DNA of 64,000 bases from Candidatus Cloacimonas sp. GTDB lineage: Bacteria > Cloacimonadota > Cloacimonadia > Cloacimonadales > Cloacimonadaceae. How positions within the stretch are numbered: the first letter of the stretch is position 1; every line of letters starts with the position of its first letter. The stretch covers positions 31,922-95,921 of the forward strand of contig JBDKSF010000068.1 of NCBI GenBank assembly GCA_039680785.1, written 5' to 3'. The position numbers and the translations under genes were made by a program. Of this stretch, positions 3,777 to 12,765 are shown one piece after another. The notes under the pieces were generated by a model. The model saw only the letters and a list, made by a program, of their open reading frames with translations. It had not been told where the DNA came from and made no database searches.

Positions 3777-5142
3777 TGTGTTCGAAATTATTTGTGCGCC
3801 TGCCACTCCCGCCGGATTTTCCGCTCTGGCAATAATTCGTCTTAGTGGTTTAGGTTGCATTGAACTTGTAGCCAAGCACTTTTCCAAGAGCAAAGAACTG
3901 CTATCTTTATCTTCTCATCGGCTGATTCTGGGCACTTTTCATTCTGCCGCGGGAGAAGCTATAGATGAAGTTCTGCTTTCTGTTTTTAGAGAACCTCATA
4001 GTTATACGGGAGAAGATGTTGTGGAAATATCTTGTCACGGAAATCCCAACCTTGTGAATAGCATTTTGCAGACCCTGATGCTTTCCTGCCGTTTGGCAAA
4101 ACCGGGGGAATTTACTTTGCGCGCTTTTTTAAACGGAAAAATGGATTTGAGCCAAGCCGAGGCAGTTAACGATCTTATTCAAGCCCAAACATCCAAAGCT
4201 GAAAAGGCCTCCTTCAGGCAACTTAAGGGCTCACTTAGCCAATATTTGCAGGAATTGCTGAATCGGATAACGGAACTTCGTATCCATTTTGAACTTGCCA
4301 TTGATTTTGCCGACCAGGATTTGCCACTTCCCGATTTTGATTTGATGCATCAAGAACTGATTGATATTATCCAAAAGGCAGAGGAACTTATCAGCACAGG
4401 TGAGCAGGGAAAAAAACTCCGCACCGGCATAAAGATCTGTTTAACCGGTGCACCCAATGTAGGTAAGTCATCACTTTTTAATGCTTTGCTGCAACAGAAC
4501 CGGGCAATCGTTACTCCCCATCCGGGAACCACCCGAGATTATCTGGAAGAGTATCTATCCATAAATGGCTTTCCCATAGTTATTTATGATACTGCAGGCC
4601 TGCGCGAATCGCCGGATGACATCGAAAAAATGGGTATTGCCAAAAGTTACGAATTAATGCAGGAATCCGACCTCCTTTTATATTTAGTGGAAACAACCGC
4701 CGCAGTAAAACTTGCACAACCCATTTCCACTTTACTCTCCAATTCCTCCCTTGCGCCTGAACTTTTTGCCAAAACCCTGGTCGTATTTAGTAAAGCAGAC
4801 CTCCAAAAAGAAAATTTGCCCCCAATCGCCGGCGGTGTCTATTGTAGCGTAGTTACGGAAAATGGTTTGAAAGACCTCACTGAAACAATTTCCCAGCGCT
4901 TGCTGCTTAGCGACGACTTGCCAGATAAACCCATCCTTATCAATAACAGACATCTGATTGCCTTAGCTAACTGCTTGCAATCCTTGCATCAAGCCGAACA
5001 ATGCCTGGTGGAAAACCAAGGTTTTGAATTCATTGCCTTTGAATTGATTTCCGCCAGCAATGCATTAGAAGAAATTTTGGGCATCATTACCACCGACGAC
5101 CTCCTAAACAAAATATTCAGTGAATTCTGCATTGGAAAATAA
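3769..5142 (+). CDS. mnmE: tRNA modification GTPase MnmE (TrmE)
   Basis: SYTGEDVVEISCHG, GEFTLRAFLNGKMDLSQAEAV, GAPNVGKSSL, PGTTRD, DTAGLR, C-terminal FSEFCIGK. Confidence 0.97.
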   Translation: MNNVFEIICAPATPAGFSALAIIRLSGLGCIELVAKHFSKSKELLSLSSHRLILGTFHSAAGEAIDEVLLSVFREPHSYTGEDVVEISCHGNPNLVNSILQTLMLSCRLAKPGEFTLRAFLNGKMDLSQAEAVNDLIQAQTSKAEKASFRQLKGSLSQYLQELLNRITELRIHFELAIDFADQDLPLPDFDLMHQELIDIIQKAEELISTGEQGKKLRTGIKICLTGAPNVGKSSLFNALLQQNRAIVTPHPGTTRDYLEEYLSINGFPIVIYDTAGLRESPDDIEKMGIAKSYELMQESDLLLYLVETTAAVKLAQPISTLLSNSSLAPELFAKTLVVFSKADLQKENLPPIAGGVYCSVVTENGLKDLTETISQRLLLSDDLPDKPILINNRHLIALANCLQSLHQAEQCLVENQGFEFIAFELISASNALEEILGIITTDDLLNKIFSEFCIGK

Positions 5143-5224
5143 GCCACGGCAAAATAGCAATTATCTTCATTGCCTCAGAATGTAACTTCTCCTTAGTTAC
5201 GGCAAGTGACTAAATTAACTAACT

Positions 5225-5383
5225 CGCTGCCACAGCATACCTTGATTGCTGTTTCCATACCTTTTTTAAACGGATTGCATACGCCCAATACGCTGCCACT
5301 GCATACTCTGCTTACTGTTTCCATACCTTTTTTAAACGGATTGCATACGCTAAAAACGCTGCCACTTCATACTCTGCTTACTG
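5225..5383. repeat. 66-bp tandem repeat, about 2.4 copies
   Basis: CGCTGCCAC starts at 5225, 5291 and 5357; shared core CTGTTTCCATACCTTTTTTAAACGGATTGCATACGC. Confidence 0.85.
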
Positions 5384-5820
5384 CCCCTTTATCGTTTTGC
5401 CATCCATTTTTTTATTTATCGCTTACCGATTTATCTAATGCCCCTCGCTTTGATGCCGTTTGCCTGTCAGACCCTTTCTACTACAATTTCCGTGTATCCA
5501 CAGCAAGAATTATTTCTTCTTCTGCTACAATTTCCCCATATTCACAGCAAGAACTAATTACAACCTACCCAAAAATGCTCTTCTACTGCCCAGGCATCTT
5601 CCCTTTATGCTGCATTGACATAGCAGTAACATTTCCGTAACGAAACAACGGCAGTGTTACGGCAGCGTTACTTGATCGTAAGAGAGTGCACTGTGTAACA
5701 AATAATTAACTGATTCTATCTTATCACAGCAAAACCATTGAATAATTAGGAACAATGGCATTCTCTCTATGATTTTTGGCTGATGGGGAGAAATAATTAA
5801 AATCCTGAACAAATTATCCT

Positions 5821-5935
5821 ATCAGAATTGAATACAAGAGACCTCTACTTGCTATTTCTCCAATCTCGGCTAACAAATATCTGCAGATGATTGGAAAGGA
5901 TAGCAAAGAAGGATATTTTTTACCTTTACCACCCA
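5821..5935. repeat. 115-bp hairpin element, copy 1 (homologous to 13967-14081)
   Basis: ATCAGAATT...CTCCAAT...TTTTTACCTTTACCACCCA at identical spacing in both copies; imperfect inverted arms TTGCTAT-TCCAATC / GATTGGA-ATAGCAA. Confidence 0.65.
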
Positions 5936-5954
5936 GATGAGAAAAATTTTGTAC

Positions 5955-5984
5955 TTGACAGAACTGAAGCACTAAAAATATAAG
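5955..5984 (+). promoter_or_regulatory. putative sigma70 promoter of the TIR cassette
   Basis: TTGACA (5955-5960), 18-nt spacer, TATAAG (5979-5984), about 120 nt upstream of the first cassette gene. Confidence 0.45.
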
Positions 5985-6102
5985 AAAAACAACTATGCGA
6001 GGATAATGATTTATTATGAAAGATGAATCTCATTTATCACACACACTAAGCCTGATAGAGCAATCGGTAAAATTCCATTCATAGTCTGAACTGTTGAGGA
6101 AG

Positions 6103-7038
6103 ATGATGGATTTGCAACAAAACATCTGTCCAATATGCCATAGAGAGTTAAGTGAAAACCTAAGAACAAGCGATTATGGAAACATAGTTCATGTTGTATG
6201 TGCATACTGCGGTAACTTCAAGATAACAAATCATGTATTACTTGATATGTTGAGTGAGAGACAGCAGAAAAATGAGCCAGACATGGACATGAGTATTGCC
6301 TTAAGACATCTATCATCTATGGCAGCAGATGAGATTGATTTAAAGTATGAAAACTACGAAAAGATTAAGGGTAGTATTCAAATTCCTTCCGATCCATTGG
6401 AAGTTCTCGATCTTCTTATGCTTTATTGTGGGAAAAAAGCTACCAGGTTCAATGTAGGTATAACAGTTCCAAAAATCGATATTCCATTATTGTATGTGCA
6501 CGATGACAACGATATGCAAGCATTACTTGAAATGGCTCAGGAATTGGAGTACATTGATCAGTATCATTCAGAACAGAATAATTATGTGTTTACACTAAAA
6601 GTCAAGGGATGGGATAGAATAATCCAGCTTCGTAAAGTTAGACCAGAATCTAAACAAGTGTTTGTGGCAATGTCGTTTAACAATAAATTAGACGAAATCT
6701 ATCATCAAGGAATTGCGAAAGCAGTTGAACAATGCGGATTGATCCCTATCAGAATAGACCTTGTTGATTTTAATGACGAGATAATATCAAATGTATTAAG
6801 TAGGATAAACCAAAGCAGATTTTTAATAGCGGATTATACAGATAATAGACCAGGTGTCTATTTTGAAACTGGTTATGCTATCGGTAGAGGTTTGCCAGTA
6901 ATTTATTGCTGTCGGGAAAGCGATAAAGGGTATATTCATTTCGATATTAATCATTACAAATTCATTCATTGGATTGATGTAAGTGACTTTAAGACCGAAC
7001 TTGTAAAGAGGATAACTAATACTGGTCTAAATACTTAA
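6103..7038 (+). CDS. Zn-ribbon plus C-terminal nucleoside 2-deoxyribosyltransferase-like/TIR-like domain protein
   Basis: N-terminal CPIC...CAYC; C-terminal 'QVFVAMSF...IRID...SRFLIADYTDNRPGVYFETGYAIGRGLPVIYCC...HFDINH'. ATG at 6103 after GAGGA (ORF track starts at TTG 6094). Confidence 0.7.
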   Translation: MMDLQQNICPICHRELSENLRTSDYGNIVHVVCAYCGNFKITNHVLLDMLSERQQKNEPDMDMSIALRHLSSMAADEIDLKYENYEKIKGSIQIPSDPLEVLDLLMLYCGKKATRFNVGITVPKIDIPLLYVHDDNDMQALLEMAQELEYIDQYHSEQNNYVFTLKVKGWDRIIQLRKVRPESKQVFVAMSFNNKLDEIYHQGIAKAVEQCGLIPIRIDLVDFNDEIISNVLSRINQSRFLIADYTDNRPGVYFETGYAIGRGLPVIYCCRESDKGYIHFDINHYKFIHWIDVSDFKTELVKRITNTGLNT

Positions 7039-7071
7039 CTTAATATGTTATAAACCCTTTGAGGAGAATTG

Positions 7072-7509
7072 ATGACTAAACAAGAGTTAGAAATCTATGA
7101 ATCTCCTGCAGTTATTAAACACATAGAGATTTTGCAGGATATCATCAATAGAATGGCTGGAAACAGCGCAGCTTGTAAAACATGGGCATTAACAATCGTT
7201 ACAGGTATAATAGCTTTGTTTTACAATGATGGATTTCCCATATTGCTTGGCATCATAATTGTAGTTCTTTTCTTCGCCTTAGACTCGTTTTATGTGGGTC
7301 TTGAAAGCCATTTTAGATGTCTTCATAAAGAATTCGTGAAAAAAATGAATGAAAACAAGCTTGTAATAGAAGATATCTACAGCATCAAGACCAAGCGTAA
7401 TTTTCTTATTCACTTACAGTTCATTTTGTATGGAATGAGATCATTTTCCACTTTATTCTTTTATCCACCTATTTTGGTTATAATCGTTGTTCTGTTTTTG
7501 TGTAATTAA
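7072..7509 (+). CDS. small membrane protein (about 3 TM), putative defence effector
   Basis: 'HIEILQDIINRMAGNSAACKTW' followed by hydrophobic segments WALTIVTGIIALFY, PILLGIIIVVLFFALDSFYVGL and FFYPPILVIIVVLFL; GAGGAG RBS before ATG 7072. Confidence 0.7.
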   Translation: MTKQELEIYESPAVIKHIEILQDIINRMAGNSAACKTWALTIVTGIIALFYNDGFPILLGIIIVVLFFALDSFYVGLESHFRCLHKEFVKKMNENKLVIEDIYSIKTKRNFLIHLQFILYGMRSFSTLFFYPPILVIIVVLFLCN

Positions 7510-7533
7510 CATAAAATAAATAAGGAGGTTCAA

Positions 7534-8019
7534 ATGCCAAAGAGACAAGTTTTCTACAGCTTTCATTTCAAGAACGATGTTATGAGGGTTCAACAAATAA
7601 GAAACATTGGGGCAATTGAAGATAATAAGCCGGTATCAGAAAATGAATGGGAGGAGATTAGGAGAAAAGGGAAAGATTCTATTAAGAAATGGATCAATGT
7701 CAATATGAGTTATCGATCTTGTGTCATTGTATTGGTTGGCGAAGAAACAGCTGACCGTGAGTGGGTTCAATATGAAATAAAGAAAGCTTGGGAAGATGGT
7801 AAGGGATTACTTGGAATTTACATTCATAACATTCGGTGTCCGAGAAACGGTAAATGTAATAAAGGTGATAATCCTTTCGAACAATTTACTTTACAAGATG
7901 GTACTAAGCTATCAACTAAGGTAAAATGCTATAACCCAAAATCTGATGATGCTTACAACGATATAGCTAAAAATCTTGAGAAATGGGTTGAAGAAGCAAT
8001 TGAGAGTAGGAAGGAGTAG
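7534..8019 (+). CDS. ThsB-like TIR domain protein (DUF1863/MTH538 family)
   Basis: 'RQVFYSFHF..DVMRVQQIRN...WEE...IKKWI...M...SCVIVLVGEETADREWVQYEIKKAW..GKGLLGIYIH'; catalytic-type Glu in WVQYEI; AGGAGG RBS. Confidence 0.88.
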   Translation: MPKRQVFYSFHFKNDVMRVQQIRNIGAIEDNKPVSENEWEEIRRKGKDSIKKWINVNMSYRSCVIVLVGEETADREWVQYEIKKAWEDGKGLLGIYIHNIRCPRNGKCNKGDNPFEQFTLQDGTKLSTKVKCYNPKSDDAYNDIAKNLEKWVEEAIESRKE

Positions 8020-8021
8020 AT

Positions 8022-8825
8022 ATGTATAGGGGATTTAATGTTAAGAATATCGAGATAGAAGATGAAAAATACTATAATAAAGGATATGAGAAAATGGTTG
8101 AAAACAAGAATGCAATTTCTGATAAGTTACACAATTTCATTCCTAATAATGGTAAGATCGATGGAACAAATATTCAGAACTCTTGGTTCCCAACAATCGA
8201 CGCAGATGTTTTTATTTCTCATGCCCATAGTGATGAAAACATTGCTCTTACATTGGCTGGATGGTTATGGTGTCGTTTCCGCCTAACATCATTCGTGGAC
8301 TCTTGTGTTTGGGGATATTCAAATGACTTACAGAAGATAATTGATGAGCAATTTTGTAAAAAGGGTTACAATTCGAACAGTTATGAAAGCAGAAACTTTT
8401 CTACTAGCCATGTGCATATGATGCTTGCTAGTGCTTTAACGATAATGATTGATAGCGCAGAATGTTTATTTTTTTTAAATACGCCAAGTTCACTGTCAGT
8501 AAGTGACATTGAAGATAAGACTTGCTCTCCTTGGATATATCATGAATTAACTATCAGCAAGTACATAAGAAAACGATTTCCAACAAGACATAAACGCAAG
8601 AGTTTATTAGCCTATAGGTCAATACCAAAAGAAGCTCGATTAAAAATGGAATACTATATTGATTTGTCAAATTTGGTTACAATATCAGAAAGTGATTTGG
8701 TTGTTTGGGGAAACCACTGTAAGAGTACTAAATTAAATGCTCTTGATGATTTGTATAAAAGACATCCTATTAATCCTATTAAAAAGAGAAGTGCTCCTAA
8801 AGTGTGTAGATATCCATGTAGTTAA
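8022..8825 (+). CDS. second TIR domain protein
   Basis: 'DVFISHAHSDE...LAGWL...FVDSCVWG...MIDSAECLFFLNTP...SPWIYHEL'; starts 2 nt after the previous stop. Confidence 0.78.
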   Translation: MYRGFNVKNIEIEDEKYYNKGYEKMVENKNAISDKLHNFIPNNGKIDGTNIQNSWFPTIDADVFISHAHSDENIALTLAGWLWCRFRLTSFVDSCVWGYSNDLQKIIDEQFCKKGYNSNSYESRNFSTSHVHMMLASALTIMIDSAECLFFLNTPSSLSVSDIEDKTCSPWIYHELTISKYIRKRFPTRHKRKSLLAYRSIPKEARLKMEYYIDLSNLVTISESDLVVWGNHCKSTKLNALDDLYKRHPINPIKKRSAPKVCRYPCS

Positions 8826-8933
8826 AAACAGAGATTATATTAACTTTGAAGTCCGGTATTTCCAATGAAACAGTGGAAACAGAGTATGGATTTCTAAGAC
8901 ACCAATTTGGTTCATTTCTGATAAGGAGAATAG

Positions 8934-9914
8934 ATGAAAAAAGTTATACCAATAGTAAGTCCCGCTGTTAATTATCTAACTTATGTTCAAGCAATTTGTG
9001 GCATAAACTGGGAAATTGAAGATAAAGAGCGTAAGAACGAAATGCTCTCGGAAGAAGATCAAGTTTATATGCAATCTTGTGCCGATAACTTGAGATTTGG
9101 AGATGGCTCGGTATCCTCATTAACAGAGATATTTTACTTCCTTCCAGCTTATATATTCAAAGAAAATAGTGCCGGCATTATGGAATATTTTTCCTGTTTA
9201 GAACACTGTTATGATGTAGGTAGTCCATCACCTTTAATTGAGGAATATGGTGACCATATTAAACGAATGCAAGAATTTAATGCTTCCTTTTTACTGACTA
9301 TTAAATCATTAAATCAGGAAGAAGTACTCTTTAAAATCAAGCATCTAAGCACTATATATAAAACATATTACCTGAAATATTTGCACTTGATCTGGAGCCA
9401 CGATAAAGTAATTATAAATAGAACATTTGATTACATAAATGAGACATTCTCCGTGAATGACATAGTTAGTAAATGGGAAGTAGCTACAGGTTTTGATCTG
9501 CTTGCCGAGCAATATCAGCTGATTATAGTTCCCTCTCTTCAGTTTGGACCATGCGCAAATTCATTGCATTATGGTGTAAATATCTTCCCGGCTATTACAG
9601 AATACTGCCCTAAGGAATACTTTGATCATTTTATCTCGCATGAGATTGGAACCCACATCCTAAAACCTCACACTTTAGATAAAGCTGACATAGCAGATGA
9701 TAATTTTCGCATCCCCTATATTGCTTTTGAGAATCTGGCAAAACACATCAACCTAAAGATCCTATCAAATAGATATCAATATGAGTTAGGTGAAGAATAT
9801 TACGAGGATGCGATTTTTGAAAGTATCTATAATAATCTGGATACATTGGCTAATGATGATATTGGTGCTATGTACTTTACTGCCATAGACCAGTATAAGA
9901 AATTGAAATCATAG
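8934..9914 (+). CDS. hypothetical protein with HExxH motif (possible gluzincin-type metallopeptidase)
   Basis: 'FISHEIGTHILK' and downstream 'AFENLA'; AGGAG RBS; no signal peptide. Confidence 0.5.
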   Translation: MKKVIPIVSPAVNYLTYVQAICGINWEIEDKERKNEMLSEEDQVYMQSCADNLRFGDGSVSSLTEIFYFLPAYIFKENSAGIMEYFSCLEHCYDVGSPSPLIEEYGDHIKRMQEFNASFLLTIKSLNQEEVLFKIKHLSTIYKTYYLKYLHLIWSHDKVIINRTFDYINETFSVNDIVSKWEVATGFDLLAEQYQLIIVPSLQFGPCANSLHYGVNIFPAITEYCPKEYFDHFISHEIGTHILKPHTLDKADIADDNFRIPYIAFENLAKHINLKILSNRYQYELGEEYYEDAIFESIYNNLDTLANDDIGAMYFTAIDQYKKLKS

Positions 9915-10098
9915 AATGATTCCGATATGTAGGAATGTCACCTGTTGTCTGCTATATGTTTTTATAATCTGACATTATGACGATCTATTATTGCAATATT
10001 CGGTGATACTTCCTTTCCCTTTTCAGTAATATATTTTCAATTTTCGCTGATACTTTATCCTAAACTCATCCTTGGGATTGTTGCCTTGCAGAAAAAGC

Positions 10099-10127
10099 TT
10101 GACATCCACAGGGCTTTAGAGTATTAT
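10099..10127 (+). promoter_or_regulatory. near-consensus sigma70 promoter
   Basis: TTGACA (10099-10104), 17-nt spacer, TATTAT (10122-10127). Confidence 0.65.
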
Positions 10128-10279
10128 ATTATAAATGATTTATCTTGTTTGGATACATTGGGGATAAATGCTTCCGTGCCTTTGCCAAAAAGAATTCGGT
10201 AAGCAGGTGGATTCCCAAAGAAAATAAGTTGTAACCAGAAAAATTTGATATTAGTAAGTATCAAAAAAGCGAGAAAGCA

Positions 10280-12765
<2,486 letters not shown>

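Follow-up and report, generated by a model that had tools for sequence, protein, structure and literature searches.

Within a 64,000-nt stretch of DNA from Candidatus Cloacimonas sp. (contig JBDKSF010000068.1, positions 31,922 to 95,921 of the forward strand; hereafter the window), we identified a small gene, here called thsF-like, whose product very probably belongs to the ThsF family and, as judged by homology, functions as membrane effector in a type V Thoeris cassette directed against phage. The 145-aa protein is homologous to a validated ThsF, contains three transmembrane (TM) helices and no other domain within the ~140-150 aa of the family, and has ThsB-type TIR proteins, here ThsB-1 and ThsB-2, as operon partners. 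The coordinates of these genes and of their neighbours are given in Table 1.

Type V Thoeris was defined as the combination of ThsB with ThsF, a three-TM effector labelled DUF2270 (PF10028) (Yirmiya, Leavitt, ... Sorek, December 2025 preprint, bioRxiv 10.64898/2025.12.03.692087), and this preprint was the only paper returned by a literature search on 'ThsF'. The system of Bacillus thuringiensis DAR 81934 defends B. subtilis against phage, and its ThsB synthesizes 3' cyclic ADP-ribose (3'cADPR) in a manner dependent on infection (bioRxiv 10.64898/2025.12.03.692087). Added 3'cADPR, and not 2'cADPR or cADPR, is toxic to cells bearing the system, and Tad1, a sponge for 3'cADPR, abolishes the defence (bioRxiv 10.64898/2025.12.03.692087). 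In an AlphaFold 3 (AF3) model, ThsF assembles into a ring-shaped homo-heptamer with positively charged pockets between the protomers; islands with multiple ThsB and ThsF genes were also reported (bioRxiv 10.64898/2025.12.03.692087).

Using the validated ThsB sequence (Table S1 of bioRxiv 10.64898/2025.12.03.692087), we found a protein (P0171) on a B. cereus-group contig that is 100% identical to DAR 81934 ThsB. A gene encoding a 141-aa protein lies 14 bp downstream, a position that agrees with the consecutive IMG gene IDs listed for the TIR and its effector in Table S2 (bioRxiv 10.64898/2025.12.03.692087). BLASTP aligned this 141-aa protein with the window protein over the full length at 33% identity (E 3e-18), hhalign aligned it with the profile of the window protein's family with a probability of 99.5% (E 6.7e-23), and it retains R27, N31, S32, K36, W38, D71, E78, R82, S124 and Y131 of that family. 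The TIR neighbours point in the same direction: ThsB-2 is 40% identical to validated DAR 81934 ThsB over the full length (E 4e-68), and ThsB-1 shares 56% identity with a TIR that Table S1 lists as 'DUF2270 - Type V'. Similar pairs are found on plasmids. A Terribacillus plasmid encodes a ThsB that shares 47% identity with the validated protein, directly followed by a gene that the window protein matches in a tblastn search, and on a Vibrio chagasii plasmid a ThsF homologue adjoins an annotated TIR gene.

Two other observations were made on plasmid-borne genes. A Clostridium botulinum plasmid, seen among the matches (H5 and H22), also has a ThsB/ThsF-like pair. The nearest plasmid homologues of the validated ThsB were considered as type V candidates and rejected, the locus of B. 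cereus NZ_CP053657.2 (L115) being type I (SIR2) and that of Priestia megaterium NZ_CP085436.1 (L116) being type II (Macro). Since these two ThsBs sit in type I and type II loci, one ThsB clade serves several effector types.

The thsF-like frame is unbroken from the ATG at 7072 to the TAA at 7507-7509 on the plus strand, with an in-frame TTG at 7069 upstream of the ATG. A HMMER search of 1.84 billion cluster representatives (50% identity) recovered 2,718 relatives with E<=1e-3, 366 of them with E<=1e-10; because so many representatives match, the reading frame is more than a chance ORF (open reading frame), and it is a genuine gene. Kyte-Doolittle windows placed hydrophobic segments at residues 37-51, 56-70(77) and 125-145. 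Lysines and arginines number four in residues 1-36, none in the loop 52-55, nine in residues 71-124 and none at the C-terminus, and by the positive-inside rule this distribution predicts an N-in/C-out topology. The AlphaFold2 (AF2) model, computed from an alignment of 82 family members, is all-helical (helices 12-50, 57-93, 99-103, 111-122 and 125-144), with a mean predicted local distance difference test (pLDDT) score of 93.1 and a predicted TM-score (pTM) of 0.82. In the resulting layout, an N-terminal amphipathic helix precedes a TM hairpin, and a helical linker in the cytoplasm leads on to the C-terminal TM helix; nearly all relatives share this layout at a length of 135-165 aa. Both the number of TM segments and the positive-inside pattern agree with ThsF as described in the preprint.

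Three columns of the family are invariant (R27, K36 and E78), and conservation reaches 90% or more in a further ten (Q22, I25, N31, S32, W38, D71, Y74, L75, S124 and Y131). The conserved motifs are LQxxIxRMAxNSxxxKxW, LDxxYxxxExxFR and SxSxxxFY. The basic residues R27 and K36 (both 100% conserved), R82 (78%) and K91 (76%) fall on the predicted cytoplasmic membrane-proximal face. The window protein keeps every invariant residue and departs from the consensus at the well-conserved columns P63I, R79S and L75V. An earlier note on this DNA, made from the letters and reading frames alone, had described a small three-TM protein with an N-terminal amphipathic helix lying directly upstream of a ThsB-like gene. 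Hydropathy and the AF2 model bear out the first part and the 24-bp distance to thsB-1, a clear PF08937 match, the second, while the motifs that the note had quoted turned out to be the most conserved columns of the family.

The window protein matched four PDC-M50A models of PADLOC (best PDLC04686, E 2.2e-25) and stands beside a PDC-M50B match (ThsB-1, PDLC04688, E 3.4e-64), which together make up the PDC-M50 pair. It also matched phrog_19896 (E 6e-18). No family match was obtained in Pfam or NCBIfam. Pfam models gave no Macro domain in the protein, whose C-terminus is a TM helix, and no SLATT/DUF4231 match, a weak SLATT_6 hit being seen in one of the 82 relatives (E 0.0077). In a fold search against viral proteins, SLATT proteins appeared at non-significant ranks only, and tblastn against phage genomes found no match.

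We examined the gene neighbourhoods of ThsF homologues in 80 loci from GTDB species genomes, collected in a search seeded by a 27-sequence subset; the sample is biased by this seeding with the RMAxNSAxCK motif. ORFs were called, neighbours were clustered, cluster representatives were annotated and hidden Markov models (HMMs) were built from the TIR-type clusters. The loci cover Cloacimonadota, Bacteroidota, Pseudomonadota, Actinomycetota, Bacillota, Cyanobacteriota, Chloroflexota, Acidobacteriota, Nitrospirota, archaea and others. A TIR-family ORF was present within 2 kb in 60 of the 80 loci, a lower bound as singleton TIR types escape the HMMs, and within 300 bp in 54. Within 500 bp of the gene, TIR ORFs occurred at a density of 9.2 per 10 kb; in the same loci the value fell to 0.15 per 10 kb or less past 2 kb, and past 4 kb there were none. 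Of the 60 nearest TIR partners, 54 were encoded on the same strand, with 38 located upstream and 16 downstream. These partners come from at least seven clusters, comprising ThsB_TIR, the 267-aa type, TIR_2, a SEFIR/TIR-FGE-sulfatase fusion, a TIR N-terminus on a ~800-aa protein and two weaker ones. The mostly non-defence surroundings that the earlier note would have counted against an effector were not seen.

Several loci in this sample have unusual arrangements. The homologues of 40% identity seemed at first sight free of TIR genes, but have a convergent neighbour of 304-347 aa that matches the HMM of one neighbour cluster, c12. This HMM matched strongly in locus L006 (E 3e-114) and weakly in L010 (E 1.1e-05), and the c12 representative itself has weak TIR matches only. 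Both loci belong to a ThsF sub-clade (L035, L047, L087, L104, L006 and L010) in which the gene is convergent to one for a 304-363-aa weak-TIR protein, followed by a gene for a large GAF-domain protein (456-1082 aa). This three-gene arrangement is recurrent, and a HATPase_c (histidine-kinase) match, itself faint, was seen in L006 only. In seven loci (L068, L075, L078, L082 (Nostocales), L081, L095 and L106), ThsF homologues are paired with uncommon TIR fusions, either SEFIR/TIR with FGE-sulfatase (~460-530 aa) or a TIR N-terminus on a ~800-aa protein. Finally, none of nine Dehalococcoidia loci (L045, L051, L053, L069, L076, L091, L105, L107 and L109) has a detectable TIR gene, and ThsF often lies there in a conserved block with two MFS-transporter-like (major facilitator superfamily) genes, a PaREP1-like gene and a gene for a 240-aa membrane protein. 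Three sister loci (L052, L054 and L073) retain a ThsB upstream of the ThsF homologue. The TIR-less copies may have decayed or been co-opted.

On the model of the validated system, we hypothesize that upon phage infection one or both ThsB TIR enzymes would convert NAD+ into a signal of the cyclic ADP-ribose type, with 3'cADPR the most likely product of the B. thuringiensis-like ThsB-2. The signal would then bind ThsF at its cytoplasmic membrane-proximal face, with no dedicated soluble domain involved. Conserved polar residues cluster just before TM1 (R27, N31, S32 and K36) and just after TM2 (D71, Y74, E78 and R82), and with the predicted topology both patches lie on that face, where a pocket between protomers would sit. 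A putative pocket could accordingly combine the end of the amphipathic helix with the exit of TM2, using these eight residues, and would probably be located at the protomer interfaces of a ring-shaped homo-oligomer; the conserved basic residues of the window protein are consistent with the published AF3 pocket model. Upon binding, the oligomer would switch to a state that breaches the membrane or forms a channel, and the cell would be arrested or killed before the phage cycle ends. For the cassette in the window, we infer by homology which signal is made, how ThsF oligomerises, where the ligand binds and that the membrane is damaged. The earlier note had proposed a candidate membrane-disrupting effector that answers to the TIRs, which matches the role suggested in the literature for ThsF and is in keeping with the homology of both the effector and its ThsBs to type V proteins. 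Its further suggestion, that a protein with no Macro, SLOG or SAVED domain would need a new signal-binding site, agrees with the inter-protomer pockets proposed for ThsF from AF3 modelling (bioRxiv 10.64898/2025.12.03.692087). The presence of two ThsBs in the cassette probably widens the range of phages sensed, by analogy with other systems. Thoeris loci with more than one ThsB are well established.

A number of results weigh against the assignment of the gene to type V Thoeris or against parts of the mechanism. The window protein has no match to PF10028 (gathering threshold 25 bits) even at E<=1, and just 10 of the 82 family members match that model weakly (best E 0.004). Foldseek searches with the ThsF model found nothing significant in PDB or BFVD (best E 2.9 and 0.57, respectively). 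The HMMs detected no TIR in 20 of the 80 homologue loci, most conspicuously in the syntenic Dehalococcoidia block, and the TIR cluster to which ThsB-1 belongs also contains type XI TIRs, whose product is unknown. The published toxicity of 3'cADPR was seen in cells with the whole system and not with ThsF alone, and the second validated type V system, that of Bacillus sp. 1NLA3E, is not triggered by 3'cADPR (bioRxiv 10.64898/2025.12.03.692087). As 1NLA3E does not respond to this molecule, the signal used by the window cassette is uncertain. It is less certain than the architecture; ThsB-2 resembles a 3'cADPR producer.

With regard to PF10028, matches above threshold were also absent from the phylum, including the window's own genome, from five homologue-bearing genomes and from 300 Bacilli genomes. 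Two Bacilli-class members encoded beside ThsB-like genes reached 18.8-22.7 bits, with matches confined to profile positions 22-83; one of the two, which has a precomputed PF10028 tag, aligned with the family profile with a probability of 99.2%. By these comparisons the family is at best a sub-threshold relative of PF10028, and we have filed the window protein under ThsF and not under PF10028 because it is homologous to the validated protein but falls below the PF10028 threshold.

We considered whether the direction of signalling could be reversed, with the TM protein acting as a membrane sensor or anchor that activates the TIRs, for example when phage DNA is injected or the envelope is under stress, and with the TIRs then killing the cell by depleting NAD+. 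In favour of this, many TIRs of bacteria act as NADase effectors, no nucleotide-binding domain can be recognised in ThsF, the toxicity test was carried out in cells with both genes, and the preprint itself cautions that the TIR might be the effector in unverified configurations (bioRxiv 10.64898/2025.12.03.692087). In the validated homologous system, however, ThsB alone makes 3'cADPR upon infection, externally supplied 3'cADPR is toxic only to system-bearing cells and Tad1 blocks defence, and these three results together place the TM protein downstream of the signal. ThsB-2 of the window is homologous, over its full length, to the ThsB that makes this signal, and the same TIR clusters are paired elsewhere with SIR2-SLOG and Macro effectors. 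We therefore regard a sensor role as unlikely, if the least unlikely of the alternatives.

Still less probable is an effector of the SLATT type or of the 2TM-4TM type known from CBASS (cyclic oligonucleotide-based antiphage signalling system) and Pycsar (pyrimidine cyclase system for antiphage resistance), which would respond to a cyclase-made nucleotide and lie near TIR genes only because defence islands bring such genes together. The arrangement of amphipathic helix, TM hairpin and helical tail does resemble that of SLATT proteins, and one family member has the weak SLATT_6 match mentioned above, but the window protein has none, no CD-NTase (cGAS/DncV-like nucleotidyltransferase) or Pycsar cyclase is found among the cassette genes, and the direct homology to ThsF argues against such a reading, as does a TIR association that is tight (within 300 bp in over half of the loci), mostly same-strand and maintained across phyla. 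We give equally little credence to the idea that the gene is a decayed or orphan copy, or that it serves a housekeeping function in the membrane, as may hold for the TIR-less Dehalococcoidia homologues. The homologue loci without a detectable TIR gene, the departures from consensus at three columns and the absence here of the 220-aa gene with which the cassette begins in close relatives would all fit with decay. Against this, the frame is intact, a ribosome-binding site (RBS) is present, the spacing to intact ThsB genes is tight, every invariant residue is kept, homologues of 79-84% identity occupy the same intact cassette in other metagenomes, and the distribution is patchy and accessory. A ThsF effector acting downstream of the TIRs thus remains the reading that we favour.

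Among known systems, the window cassette is most like the type V systems of DAR 81934 and 1NLA3E. Shared features are a protein of ~141-145 aa with three TM helices and common conserved motifs, full-length homology to validated ThsF, TIR neighbours homologous to type V ThsBs, and an accessory, horizontally mobile cassette. Those systems are two-gene operons, whereas the window has two different ThsBs and a gene with a Zn-ribbon and a domain related to DNPH1 and nucleoside 2'-deoxyribosyltransferase (NDT); it also differs in its Cloacimonadota host, in having just 33% identity to the validated ThsF and in escaping detection by Pfam PF10028. Type II Thoeris (TM + Macro; histidine-ADP-ribose, His-ADPR) and ThsH of type VII (SLATT; cADPR) follow a common logic, in which a nucleotide made by a TIR activates a membrane effector thought to oligomerise and breach the membrane. 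Unlike them, the window protein has neither a Macro domain nor a SLATT match nor any separate soluble sensor domain, and because it lacks the latter its ligand site would be formed by the membrane-proximal helices. The 2TM/4TM effectors of CBASS (Cap14/Cap15-type) and PycTM of Pycsar are likewise small TM effectors of abortive infection by nucleotide second messengers, but they have no sequence or fold relationship with the window protein, and its partner is a TIR and not a CD-NTase or a pyrimidine cyclase.

The pairing of ThsF with ThsB is already known. PADLOC-DB v2 catalogued the same gene pair in 2023 as the defence candidate PDC-M50 (PDC-M50A + PDC-M50B), a purely computational candidate with no mechanism attached, which no paper names according to our literature search, and the pair was validated in the 2025 preprint. 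For the field, the present assignment consequently adds little. It does allow a 145-aa ORF that had lacked annotation, and the genes around it, to be assigned to a named anti-phage system in Cloacimonadota, an uncultured lineage of anaerobic digesters, and the conserved residues R27, K36, E78, D71, Y74, S124 and Y131 provide a mutagenesis map for the ligand site and gating of ThsF. What further value there is lies in the conserved DNPH1/NDT-like companion gene and in the TIR-less Dehalococcoidia homologues.

Table 1. Features of the thsF-like locus, in window coordinates
Feature	Position	Strand	Evidence
Low-GC island with the cassette	5500..10000	.	Composition profile; between mnmE and T9SS-tailed (type IX secretion system) protein/obg
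Accessory gene, 314 aa: N-terminal CxxC...CxxC Zn-ribbon, helical middle, C-terminal DNPH1/NDT/BcmB-like (TIR-related) N-glycosidase-fold domain	6094..7038	+	Profile and fold matches
GAGGAG, Shine-Dalgarno/RBS-like motif, 5 nt before the thsF-like ATG	7061..7066	+	Sequence reading
thsF-like gene, candidate 145-aa three-TM membrane effector	7072..7509	+	PDC-M50A, phrog_19896, ThsF homology, AF2, hydropathy
thsB-1, 161-aa ThsB-type TIR, WVQYEI glutamate motif present	7534..8019	+	PF08937 E 1.9e-26; PADLOC ThsB PDLC00433 E 3e-75; PDC-M50B
thsB-2, 267-aa TIR protein, FISHAHSD and SPWIYHEL motifs	8022..8825	+	PADLOC ThsB PDLC00430 E 2.4e-75
326-aa ORF in the low-GC island	8934..9914	+	Within the GC dip

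The genes of the locus follow each other closely on one strand, with 33 bp between the 314-aa gene and thsF-like, 24 bp between thsF-like and thsB-1, 2 bp between thsB-1 and thsB-2 and 108 bp before the 326-aa ORF. GC content is ~0.32-0.36 at ~5.5-10 kb, as opposed to ~0.41-0.44 in the dxs/mnmE and obg/dprA flanks. Close homologues of the thsF-like gene (53-84% identity) always occur in a like cassette, in the order ~215-aa gene, ~300-aa Zn-ribbon/NDT-like gene, TM gene, one or two ThsB genes and a gene for a ~255-aa TIR, and those of 79-84% identity occupy it intact in other metagenomes. The ~220-aa gene heading the cassette of relatives (4385-5047 in locus L001) is absent from the window by tblastn. 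Cassette sites vary in these relatives, and lie beside an S10 ribosomal operon, a type I restriction-modification system or a type III-B CRISPR (Cmr) module. A ThsF-family copy was found in 12 of 232 genomes of the phylum and in one of 20 other genomes of the genus; the thsF-like gene is an accessory gene with a patchy distribution. The two nearest genomes share mnmE, and because synteny stops at its 3' end no clean insertion boundary can be drawn. A scan for promoters and terminators returned sites no more frequent than in shuffled sequence, and Rfam gave no match in 5000-10400.

The earlier note had placed the protein between TIR genes. This holds for the downstream side, with its two ThsBs; the product of the gene directly upstream is not a canonical TIR and is DNPH1/NDT-like. 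Its C-terminal domain carries the motifs VFVAMSF, IADYTD, GVYFETGYA (with the invariant E258) and IHFD, and scored 23.9 bits, below the cut-off, against Pfam Nuc_deoxyrib_tr. The PADLOC 'TIR effector' model PDLC00733 matched residues 230-297 (E 7.5e-11), and phrog_16139 matched the protein with E 2e-36. The AF2 model is of moderate confidence (pLDDT 75.8); its best fold matches are DNPH1/Rcl, nucleoside 2'-deoxyribosyltransferase and the CMP N-glycosidase BcmB, with the TIRs of SpbK and SPARTA interleaved lower down (TM-score on the target ~0.7, E ~1e-3). This gene type is kept directly upstream of ThsF in the closest clade, that of the Cloacimonadota-type cassettes, and is absent from most other ThsF loci. 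A tentative possibility, which we consider rather doubtful, is that the Cloacimonadota-type cassette constitutes a distinct type V sub-architecture, in which the 314-aa protein would be a third, non-TIR signal generator, an enzyme that processes or clears the signal, or a second effector like the CMP hydrolase ThsI of type VIII; separately, ThsF might answer to a molecule other than 3'cADPR, as suspected for 1NLA3E.

At the other end of the locus, searches of Pfam, PADLOC, NCBIfam and PHROGs returned nothing for the 326-aa ORF; none of the other ThsF loci examined has a counterpart, and the ORF probably lies outside the Thoeris cassette. We noted an HEIGTH (HExxH-like) motif in its product, which may be a metallopeptidase-like orphan. 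Some ~950 bp of non-coding DNA separate mnmE from the cassette and contain, on the margin of the low-GC island, a 66-bp tandem repeat (5225-5383; 2.4 copies, 90% match) that could be a remnant of the element that delivered the cassette.

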